Below, piece after piece: positions 31,790 to 33,538 of a stretch of DNA of 38,514 nucleotides (position 1 is its first letter; every line of letters begins with the position of its first letter). The notes under the pieces were generated by a model. It did no database searches and was not told the origin of the DNA. It worked only from the letters and a program-made list of their open reading frames with translations. The stretch is from a virus (lineage: Duplodnaviria; Heunggongvirae; Uroviricota; Caudoviricetes), in IMG/VR virus record IMGVR_UViG_2595698887_000001. One strand, given 5' to 3'. A program made the position numbers and the translations under genes.

Positions 31790-31811
31790 CACCCATTCAG
31801 GATCACAAGAT

Positions 31812-31836
31812 AAGGCCGGGATTATTCCCGGCTTTT
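31812..31836 (+). terminator. intrinsic terminator
   Basis: GCCGGGA-TTAT-TCCCGGC followed by TTTT. Confidence 0.7.
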
Positions 31837-31886
31837 GCATATCATAACCCACACCAAACCACAACCCCGAATTTTTTACCGTCATT

Positions 31887-32091
31887 TATGCAATAAAGTG
31901 AATTTAAAGAGATCTCTTTAAAGACATATAACGGCAAGCCTAACAGATAAACCCTCTCAAAACTCGTTATATTGCGTTTAATCGTGTATCATTACCCGCC
32001 TTTGACTCACTCACACCCCAAAAATGATAACGCAGGTTATCAAGTGAATAAACACCGTGTTTTTATGCAAATTGAGTGAATACGAAGCAAA
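31887..32091 (+). repeat. intergenic module 3 (ARG-box-like)
   Basis: TATGCAA-N4-GTGAAT at 31887; TATGCAA-N5-GTGAAT at 32064; 20-bp palindrome at 31903-31922. Confidence 0.7.
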
Positions 32092-32218
32092 AACCCTGAA
32101 ATGATAGCTTTTCTCATCTAACCTATTGTGTGGACTGTCTTTTTTTGAGCATAGAAATCATCTTTTGTCAAATAAAATATCGTTCGCGTTATCGGGGTGA
32201 GTGGCGCGAGCGGAGCGA

Positions 32219-32429
32219 GCGACACAATAACACGGGGTAACTCAAACGATAATAAATATCGTTTTCGTTCGCGTTATCGTGGCTCGTTAGCGCCTAAGCG
32301 TTAACAGACAGGATGACTAGAATGATGAATAATTAACAATGCAACTATTACATAGTTGAAGTATTTTATAACCTCGCCACGATAACACCGATTAGCTGAT
32401 CGCTAATCGCCCCCGTGTTATTGTGTCGC
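32219..32429. other. multibranch stem-loop element (ncRNA or ssDNA structure candidate)
   Basis: 19-bp perfect outer inverted repeat; 11-bp inner stem; four further hairpins. Confidence 0.7.
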
Positions 32430-32611
32430 CAGGTTATGAAGATCAAAGGCATTTAATTAGCCTTTAATGGTTGACAAACCATGATTAATAGAACTGTAAA
32501 CCAGGCCGCTGGCCTGCTAATTGCTGGTTTTCTTGAGCATGAAAAGGCCTGAAGTGTCAAGTGTTTTATTGATAGGAAAAGTCTATTAAAGCCAGGCGTA
32601 GCAAGGCCTGA

Positions 32612-32790
32612 TGATAACTATTCGCATATGAGAACGGATGCTCAAAAGCATGTAATTGCTAAACACAATTCTTCCTCCCTGTCAAGCTTTTTGTGGCAGA
32701 TTTACAAAATATTTTCCATTTGAGAATGATTTTCATTTCGAAACTGAAATCGAAATCGTATTCAGAATGATTATCATTTGCATTCTCATC
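32612..32790. promoter_or_regulatory. three Fur-box-like sites
   Basis: TGATAAC-T-ATTCGCA (32612), TGAGAAT-G-ATTTTCA (32721), TCAGAAT-G-ATTATCA (32762) followed by TTTGCATTCTCA. Confidence 0.6.
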
Positions 32791-32934
32791 GACAAAACAC
32801 CCCACAAAGTGAATAATAACAGCGTGAAACTGTCATGGTGGTAACATGTAGCAGGCTATTGGTTGCTGTGTGGTATGGTTCACTGATGCAATGATAACAT
32901 GTGTGACTATATGGCCTGTCGCCAGGTGATCTGT

Positions 32935-32962
32935 GGTGCGCATAACGTGTATTATGTTAAAT
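32935..32962 (+). other. dif: dif-like XerC/XerD recombination site
   Basis: GGTGCGCATAA-CGTGTA-TTATGTTAAAT; both 11-bp arms identical to E. coli dif; central hexamer differs from TGTATA at 2 positions. Confidence 0.92.
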
Positions 32963-33538
32963 AGAGACATTCACACAAATATAACCAAGTCAAGAGCAAA
33001 TCGTGCTGTAACAGACGTAAACTGTCGCATTGCTAATAGTTGCACCTGTAATCATTAGTTTCGTTGCGTTATCATCATGCAATCATCGTGCCAAAAACTC
33101 GATGGGGTCTCGTGGTCAGACCTCTCAGATATTTTGTAAAGATCCTTGACAACCCGGAGGGCCTGTGATTGTCCGTCTAACACATCAGACATAGAGATTG
33201 CGCCCAGGAACACCCTGTCCCTTGGCCTTGCCCCTTCAGGATATTTTCGTGCCAGAACACATAAAGAGAGGGGCCTGTTTACGTTTCCCTCCGGGCGGGG
33301 GAGGGGGTGGGTTTTAGTTAGTGATGAGCCACTGATAAGGCGATATGTTTATACCATCGACATATTGTGGGGTATATGTTTATAGCACCGTAGGTGTTTG
33401 CCTTTGGCAAAGGGCTTTGCCCCGTAATGTTTATGAAATGGCGTTTTATCGACATGACAAGATGTTAACAGTTTGTACACTGCTTCGCGCAGGGGTGGTG
33501 TTTGTATCCTCCAGCTTCAGGAGATGTGGCTTACACAA

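Follow-up and report, generated by a model that had tools for sequence, protein, structure and literature searches.

Our analysis of a 38,514-nucleotide stretch of phage DNA (IMG/VR record IMGVR_UViG_2595698887_000001, referred to here as the window) identified a 28-bp sequence whose conservation suggests that the Vequintavirinae, a subfamily of virulent tailed phages, may borrow the host proteins XerC and XerD to join or resolve their genomes. The sequence had both arms of the bacterial dif site and a central region of its own, it was present in every Vequintavirinae lineage that we sampled, and in relatives with mapped genome ends it was located inside the direct terminal repeat. Taken together, these comparisons made it likely that the site has some XerCD-dependent role. 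Which role that might be is a matter on which we are considerably more tentative, and the candidate explanations are weighed below.

A dif-type site in a virulent phage genome

Judging by its sequence, the window is from a Seunavirus-like phage of the subfamily Vequintavirinae, whose members are virulent myoviruses with genomes of about 145 kb. The surroundings of the site were 91 to 94% identical to those in phages EC152, LNA4, and 4MG, and the larger open reading frames (ORFs) of the window were typical of virulent phages (rIIA, RNA ligase, HNH endonucleases, a thymidylate-kinase-like protein, and an Srd-like protein). The ORF lists placed the site in a region where a rightward and a leftward block of genes converged, and the same layout was annotated around the site in 4MG and PVP-SE1. 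The features of this region were as follows, in window coordinates:

31790 to 33445, no strand assigned: ORF-poor region of 1.65 kb between the converging gene blocks, holding the predicted repeat
32662 to 33180, no strand assigned: predicted direct terminal repeat of about 519 bp, placed by homology of its boundaries with those of relatives
32701 to 32712, plus strand: TTTACAAAATAT, inverted-repeat arm close to the left repeat boundary; 12 nt, 100% complementary to 33129 to 33140
32720 to 32738 and 32761 to 32779, plus strand: pair of palindromes resembling Fur boxes (GAATGATTnTCATT), XerC side of the site; 14 to 15 of 19 positions match the Fur consensus
32935 to 32945, plus strand: putative XerC-binding arm GGTGCGCATAA; 11 of 11 positions equal to the E. 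coli dif arm
32946 to 32951, plus strand: central region CGTGTA (TGTATA in the host); differs at positions 1 and 4
32952 to 32962, plus strand: putative XerD-binding arm TTATGTTAAAT; 11 of 11 positions equal to the E. coli dif arm, and invariant in relatives
33128 to 33145, plus strand: GATATTTTGTAAAGATCC, inverted-repeat arm close to the right repeat boundary; unique in the window, with a conservation peak of 0.71

The complete 28-mer, GGTGCGCATAA-CGTGTA-TTATGTTAAAT, was found on the plus strand at positions 32935 to 32962, and a search with this sequence (GGTGCGCATAACGTGTATTATGTTAAAT) returned no other match in the window even when three mismatches were allowed. The original prediction, which was made from the letters of the window, stated that both arms match E. 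coli dif in full (22/22 positions), that the center departs from TGTATA at positions 1 and 4, and that such a match could not plausibly be due to chance. Comparison with E. coli dif sequences confirmed the identity of the arms, which were separated by exactly 6 bp, and the two differences in the center. A chance origin was also implausible in our hands, as none of 100 dinucleotide-preserving shuffles of the window yielded a match to the 28-mer and the site was conserved across the subfamily. These results supported the view that the 28-mer is, by sequence, a genuine dif-type XerC/XerD core.

Sites of the host type were readily found in bacteria. A dif-like match to a 30-bp query was present in 5,422 of the 5,426 complete E. 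coli genomes, with most records in the 90 to 95% identity band and the listed rows at 93.3% (2 differences in 30 positions), and GTGCGCATAA-TGTATA-TTATGTTAAAT occurred in many genomes of the GTDB order Enterobacterales. The dif site beside hipBA in E. coli SCU-171 was GGTGCGCATAA-TGTGTA-TTATGTTAAAT, with the same arms as the phage site.

The site had also been described as noncoding. Two mechanically called ORFs, of 45 and 41 amino acids, overlapped the 28-mer, but the description held in practice because cross-genus conservation dropped from 0.90 inside the 28-mer to between 0.15 and 0.4 within about 10 nt on either side, which is not a coding-like pattern. No Rfam family matched the site region, and single-strand folding at the site gave no structure (z = 0.34).

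The Fur-box-like palindromes on the XerC side were better than expected from shuffled sequence in the window (P = 0.01), and the best match beat shuffles in 9 of 10 lineages (P ≤ 0.03). A palindrome of this kind was located at an equal offset from the site (-172/-173) in Seunavirus, Mydovirus, and Henunavirus; the copies in the rV5 lineage were weaker and were located on the XerD side. These palindromes could be involved in iron-responsive control, or they could be a phage operator or an accessory site.

Conservation of the site across the Vequintavirinae

Searches with a 71-nt or a 30-nt query around the site retrieved 259 to 290 phage records, most of which were Vequintavirinae. The remaining matches were to filamentous phages and to phages of other, unrelated groups, some of the sequences being derived from prophages or chromosomes. 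For closer comparison, the site was extracted from 18 loci spanning seven lineages, with the window as an additional sequence. The original prediction proposed looking in related phages for arms that are kept and a spacer that varies, and it regarded absence or decay of the site in close relatives as evidence against a function. The site was present in all seven lineages sampled (Seunavirus, Avunavirus, Vequintavirus, Certrevirus, Mydovirus, Henunavirus, and an unclassified Serratia phage), and in these seven lineages the arms were kept and the centers were lineage specific.

The XerD arm was invariant in all 18 loci and in the window. The XerC arm of the relatives varied solely at positions 1 (G/A), 4 (G/T), and 7 (C/T). 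The natural XerC arm of dif in Enterobacterales likewise varied at positions 4 and 7, position 1 being outside the matched stretch shown; this host spectrum came from 401 surveyed genomes (GTDB order Enterobacterales), 57 of which matched the strict XerD arm. That the sites of diverged phages track the host consensus is what would be expected if conserved host proteins bind them, and it would be difficult to account for by binding of a phage protein.

In an alignment of nine representatives, the mean pairwise identity was 0.90 in the 28-mer versus 0.1 to 0.4 within about 10 nt on either side, which made the 28-mer the sharpest conservation peak of the whole noncoding region. The flanks diverged immediately across lineages. 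These findings supported the idea that the site has been under strong purifying selection across the seven sampled lineages.

A marker protein common to Seunaviruses and Mydoviruses was found in 58 records, nearly all of which were among the dif-bearing records listed; two of the records outside that set were partial. The site was absent from Salmonella phage NINP13076 (MZ326168.1, 161 kb, a Seunavirus recorded as complete; 67132 to 70202), from which the whole end region was missing. The match between NINP13076 and phage SalP219, its closest relative, stopped abruptly about 570 bp before the expected site, and the NINP13076 sequence continued into unrelated coding sequence. The abrupt break resembles an assembly join more than decay of the site, and the record is probably a misjoined assembly.

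Several other database records probably carry the wrong label. Three "Campylobacter phage" records (MG065647, MG065659, and MG065674, two of which are 137 to 141 kb) matched the site at the identity of the rV5 lineage, and PQ002171, a Seunavirus-like Salmonella phage, was classed as a member of the Demerecviridae.

Dif-like sites with private centers seem, from the sequences that we inspected, to occur in other large phages too. An unrelated IMG/VR contig of 154,976 bp (CheckV, 44% complete) began, in positions 1 to 420, with DnaA-box-like TGTGGATAA repeats followed by two dif-like sites: GGTGCGCATAA-GACATA-TTATGTTAAAT at 276 to 303, and another at 373 to 399 that has one mismatch. In Escherichia phage Seurat (Queuovirinae, 1500 to 1527) and also in SLUR26, members of an unrelated group of virulent siphoviruses, AGTACGTATAA-CGTCTA-TTATGTTAAAT was located between divergent genes.

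Location of the site within the terminal repeat

One suggestion of the original prediction was that the site might lie in a terminal repeat. This was borne out in the relatives with mapped genome ends (EdH4, DP, and KPP-1), and the same location is predicted for the window by homology. The record of Klebsiella phage DP, a Mydovirus, is annotated with a 514-bp repeat at each end; these copies were 100% identical, and the site was at repeat positions 274 to 301. The record of Escherichia phage EdH4, a Vequintavirus, began and ended with an exact 459-bp repeat that contained the site. For KPP-1, another Mydovirus, twofold read coverage over positions 116,316 to 116,829 and a PhageTerm analysis confirmed a 514-bp direct terminal repeat and T7-type packaging (PMC9862379), and we placed the 28-mer at about 116,529 to 116,556, which is within that repeat. 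Both terminal copies carried the site in direct orientation in EdH4, DP, and KPP-1. The repeat reported for phage Jab is 475 bp (PMC13538427).

The repeat boundaries of EdH4 and DP were determined independently, and they coincided with homologous motifs. The left end of the repeat preceded TTGTCAAG...AAATTTACAA by 17 to 18 nt, and a GTCCG-containing motif marked the right end. In the window, the left end of the DP repeat aligned to position 32662, and each of the boundary motifs occurred once (AACACAATTCTTCCTCCCTGTCAAG at 32662 to 32686 and TGTCCGTCTAA at 33170 to 33180). From these boundary motifs and this alignment, we predict a 519-bp repeat in which the site starts at offset 274, exactly as it does in DP. 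The boundaries of the predicted repeat were 270 and 220 bp from the site. Two points limit the weight of this location as evidence for the recombination reading given below: the repeat occupies about one-third of the region that has no genes, and the location, being inherited, represents a single evolutionary event. Shorter end overlaps in SalP219 (127 bp) and SEW_6S (91 bp) were considered as terminal repeats and set aside, since they are likely assembler overlaps.

An inverted repeat, TTTACAAAATAT / ATATTTTGTAAA, was located just within both predicted repeat boundaries. Its left arm, TTTACAAAATAT, was a secondary conservation peak across genera, and the core of its right arm, TATTTTGTAAAGAT, was present in the loci of 11 relatives. 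From its position and conservation, this inverted repeat is a candidate packaging or cutting signal, or a candidate promoter. A TTGTCAAG-like word was observed beside each copy of the inverted repeat (e.g., at 32679 to 32686) and was conserved across genera; this word is likewise a candidate signal for cutting or packaging. A separate, perfect 19-bp inverted repeat (GCGACACAATAACACGGGG and its complement) was found at 32219 to 32237 and 32411 to 32429. Its arms were separated by 173 nt, and it was situated upstream of the predicted left boundary, at a distance of about 230 bp.

Private centers of the phage sites and dif sites of host genomes

The central regions of the phage sites were distributed as follows:

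CGTGTA: Seunavirus, Avunavirus, and the window
TGGGTA: Vequintavirus
GGTGTA: Certrevirus and Henunavirus
CGTGTT: Mydovirus and the Serratia phage

All of these centers share the form N-G-K-G-T-W. The host center TGTATA was found in none of the phage loci examined, and every lineage mismatched the host in both half-spacers. When one pattern spanning all four phage centers was scanned over 185,579 bacterial and archaeal species, with one genome for each, none of these genomes carried any of the four centers with these arms. The scan returned 10 matches in all, every one with the natural variant TGTGTA. This variant was the sole dif-like site in the three genomes that were checked (Pectobacterium polonicum, Providencia stuartii, and Tenebrionibacter), which indicated that it was the host's own dif. 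The natural TGTGTA center of E. coli SCU-171 differs by one base from the phage center CGTGTA.

The CGTGTA site of the window was found in 0 of 5,426 complete E. coli genomes, and no integrated copies or hybrid sites were detected at host dif in those genomes or in the 185,579 species genomes. Among the IMG/VR matches listed, several contigs of 94 to 147 kb carried these four centers, and the small contigs had centers of other families or of the host type. The results are consistent with the idea that the altered center insulates the phage site from host dif, although they do not prove it.

Searches for phage-encoded helpers and accessory signals

Six-frame protein family searches were performed on five complete genomes from four genera (4MG, PVP-SE1, DP, EdH4, and PBES 02), and the positive controls matched in the search for each family. 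In these five genomes, we found no tyrosine recombinase of family PF00589 (controls, 14/14 positive), no XafT-type Xer activator (DUF3653, PF12375), no FtsK-gamma domain, and no type IIA topoisomerase A subunit (PF00521). The earlier remark that the window shows no integrase was therefore confirmed and extended to five complete relatives. Because PF00589 was absent from all five genomes, any recombination at the site must use host enzymes.

The KOPS motif (GGGNAGGG) was not enriched in the five relatives, which had 8 to 17 copies per genome, a number similar to that of a reversed-pattern control. Polarity of KOPS toward the site was also absent: in the records of DP and EdH4, which begin with the repeat, about half of the motifs were in the right orientation and half were in the wrong one. 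The best match to a cer-type ARG box on the XerC side did not outscore shuffled sequence in 9 of 10 lineages, and its P value for the window was 0.65. Activation by FtsK, which the original prediction listed as a known requirement of dif-type sites, was left without support, as neither KOPS polarity nor an FtsK-gamma or XafT homologue was found in the five relatives.

Possible functions of the site

Recombination of the phage's own copies of the site by host XerCD, which would either cyclize injected DNA or resolve multimers, was ranked first among the explanations because of the geometry of the repeat and the mismatch between the private center and that of the host. We hold this reading tentatively, at somewhat less than even confidence. 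In this model, the 28-mer would be a target of host XerC and XerD that is kept inside the short direct terminal repeat. Since the site lies in the repeat, virion DNA would carry two direct copies about 145 kb apart, and replicated DNA, whether concatemeric or circular, would have a single copy for each genome unit. The first arrangement is the geometry of cyclization and the second is that of multimer resolution. Host XerCD, already present when the DNA enters, would pair two phage copies and exchange strands. Incoming DNA would be converted to a unit-length circle with one rebuilt repeat, together with a linear by-product of about 0.5 kb, and dimers or multimers of replicating DNA would be converted to monomers. 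The private center CGTGTA would allow the phage copies to recombine together, and its mismatch to the host center TGTATA in both half-spacers would prevent joining to the chromosome. Activation of XerD would take place without FtsK, either through a XerC-first exchange whose junction is resolved by replication or a phage nuclease or through an unrecognized phage activator. Binding and cutting of the site by XerCD, as well as the circle product, are steps that we infer from sequence comparison.

Canonical dif recombination requires FtsK at the septum, and activation is the weak point of the recombination reading, as nothing that we found explains how XerD would be activated without FtsK. Furthermore, a 0.5-kb repeat could also allow the genome to cyclize or concatemerize by ordinary homologous recombination, or the genome could replicate as a T7-like linear molecule; the packaging of KPP-1 is classed as T7 type. 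For these parts of the reading our confidence is lower. Cyclization specifically is doubtful, and the full proposal that virulent Vequintavirinae close the injected genome into a circle via host XerCD without FtsK, with a phage factor or nuclease that activates XerD or resolves the junction, is in our estimate rather unlikely.

The main rival, with a probability that we place well below even, is that XerC and XerD bind the site without recombining it. The bound complex would be a landing pad that could recruit host Topo IV to unlink replicated phage DNA, or it could hold ends or sister copies together for joining by other enzymes. In E. coli, Topo IV is recruited by dif-bound XerC, which also stimulates cleavage by Topo IV without any need for catalysis by XerCD (PMC4865107), and the five complete relatives, being without PF00521, depend on a host type IIA topoisomerase. 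Binding of this kind would require no activation by FtsK, and it fits the absence of KOPS polarity, FtsK-gamma, and XafT. However, targeting of Topo IV required the XerC box alone, deletion of the XerD box having little effect (PMC4865107), whereas both arms and the center pattern are constrained in the phages, which hold the XerD arm invariant and let the XerC arm vary. Cooperative, XerD-assisted binding of XerC could explain an invariant XerD arm. Docking also gives no direct reason for a constrained, lineage-specific center, except avoidance of host dif, and the activity of Topo IV at dif depended on circularity of the chromosome (PMC4865107). An improbable alternative is that the site serves phage machinery, whether in packaging (as a signal for terminase, for instance), in transcription (as a promoter or operator), or in replication, and that its likeness to dif is historical. 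The site is indeed located in the genome-end region amid conserved motifs that resemble cutting or packaging signals, and no Xer-related accessory feature (KOPS polarity, ARG box, XafT, or FtsK-gamma) was found. However, this alternative offers no reason for 11 XerD-arm positions to equal the host consensus across seven lineages, the variation of the XerC arm at host-variable positions 4 and 7 would be unexpected amid diverging surroundings, and the repeat boundaries are 270 and 220 bp away rather than at the site itself.

The two remaining explanations involve the host chromosome more directly, and neither fared well. The original prediction included the idea that the site is a decoy or brake, by which many phage copies titrate XerCD or stall FtsK and so block resolution of the host chromosome and cell division. 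Phage DNA reaches high copy number. Translocation by FtsK halts at XerCD-dif, according to one report (PMC2800217), but a decoy would affect just the minority of cells that have chromosome dimers, and the lytic cycle is short. It would also leave the private center and the position in the repeat unexplained. Our searches found nothing in favor of a segregation block, including any KOPS that would bring FtsK to the site, and we consider the idea highly improbable. We assign even less probability to the idea that the phage, like a hidden temperate one, now and then integrates at host dif through this site, or that the site is a relic of such integration. Filamentous phages and other integrative mobile elements exploiting Xer (IMEX) do integrate at dif via dif-like sites, and many small IMG/VR contigs carry dif-like sites. 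Against this, the site of the window was present in none of the 5,426 E. coli genomes and the four phage centers in none of the 185,579 species genomes, both half-spacers mismatch the host center, and neither a folded single-strand site (z = 0.34) nor XafT was found. The genomes in question are those of virulent myoviruses of 136 to 150 kb with rIIA, RNA ligase, and the like, and the conservation of the site is too strict for a relic.

If recombination of the phage's own copies did prove to cyclize the genome, it would be the first use of Xer by a lytic tailed phage and a host-enzyme counterpart of P1 Cre-lox. A working site would imply that a subfamily widely used in therapy cocktails and biocontrol (members include rV5, PVP-SE1, and Klebsiella, Cronobacter, and Erwinia phages) depends on host xerC and xerD, and it would explain how Vequintavirinae genomes cope with their linear ends. 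It would also supply natural, mutually orthogonal dif centers for Xer-based genetic tools. Should the site merely dock XerCD, it would be the first viral use of the link between XerC and Topo IV.

Comparison with known systems

To our knowledge, hijacking of XerCD is known in plasmids and integrating elements, mostly filamentous phages, and not in large virulent tailed phages. Our literature search found no paper that joined Vequintavirinae with XerD, or dif with the terminal repeat of a virulent tailed phage. In the KPP-1 (PMC9862379) and Jab (PMC13538427) papers, which describe the repeats, we saw no reference to the dif-like site, and the main text that accompanies a transposon-insertion (HIDEN-SEQ) map of the Vequintavirus Bas54 (PMC13716836) is silent on noncoding regions.

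The chromosomal dif sites of E. coli and other Enterobacterales have the same 28-bp layout as the phage site, with identical 11-bp arms and the same 6-bp spacing. The phage site differs in its center, which is CGTGTA rather than TGTATA, and in its setting, which is the terminal repeat of a linear virulent phage genome. Furthermore, chromosomal dif is present in one copy per replicon, whereas phage virion DNA would have two copies, and the phage relatives have no KOPS polarity.

In phage P1, Cre-loxP cyclizes terminally redundant DNA; P1 is temperate, Cre is phage encoded, and the redundancy is about 10 kb and is generated by headful packaging. The similarity is that direct copies of a site at both ends could close a circle and later resolve dimers. 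In contrast to P1, the five Vequintavirinae genomes searched encode no tyrosine recombinase, so that host XerCD would be required, and the Vequintavirinae repeat is exact and spans 0.46 to 0.52 kb.

The IMEX elements (CTXphi, VGJphi, TLCphi, and the gonococcal island) resemble the phages in having a mobile dif-like site with a diverged center and in relying, as proposed here, on host XerCD. However, IMEX integrate at host dif, and the partner proposed for the phage site is its own second copy; no integrated or hybrid site, folded single-strand attP, or XafT was found for the phages. The plasmid sites cer (ColE1) and psi (pSC101) are also similar, as they have a XerC/XerD core with a non-dif center and recombine self against self independently of FtsK, and psi has a 6-bp spacer like that of the phage site. 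They differ in that no ARG box better than chance was found on the XerC side of the phage sites. The arms of the phage site are far closer to dif than those of cer or psi.

Finally, the short, exact terminal repeats of the T7 type that are known in the Vequintavirinae (KPP-1 and Jab) have the site within them and have boundary motifs that are common to the genera.
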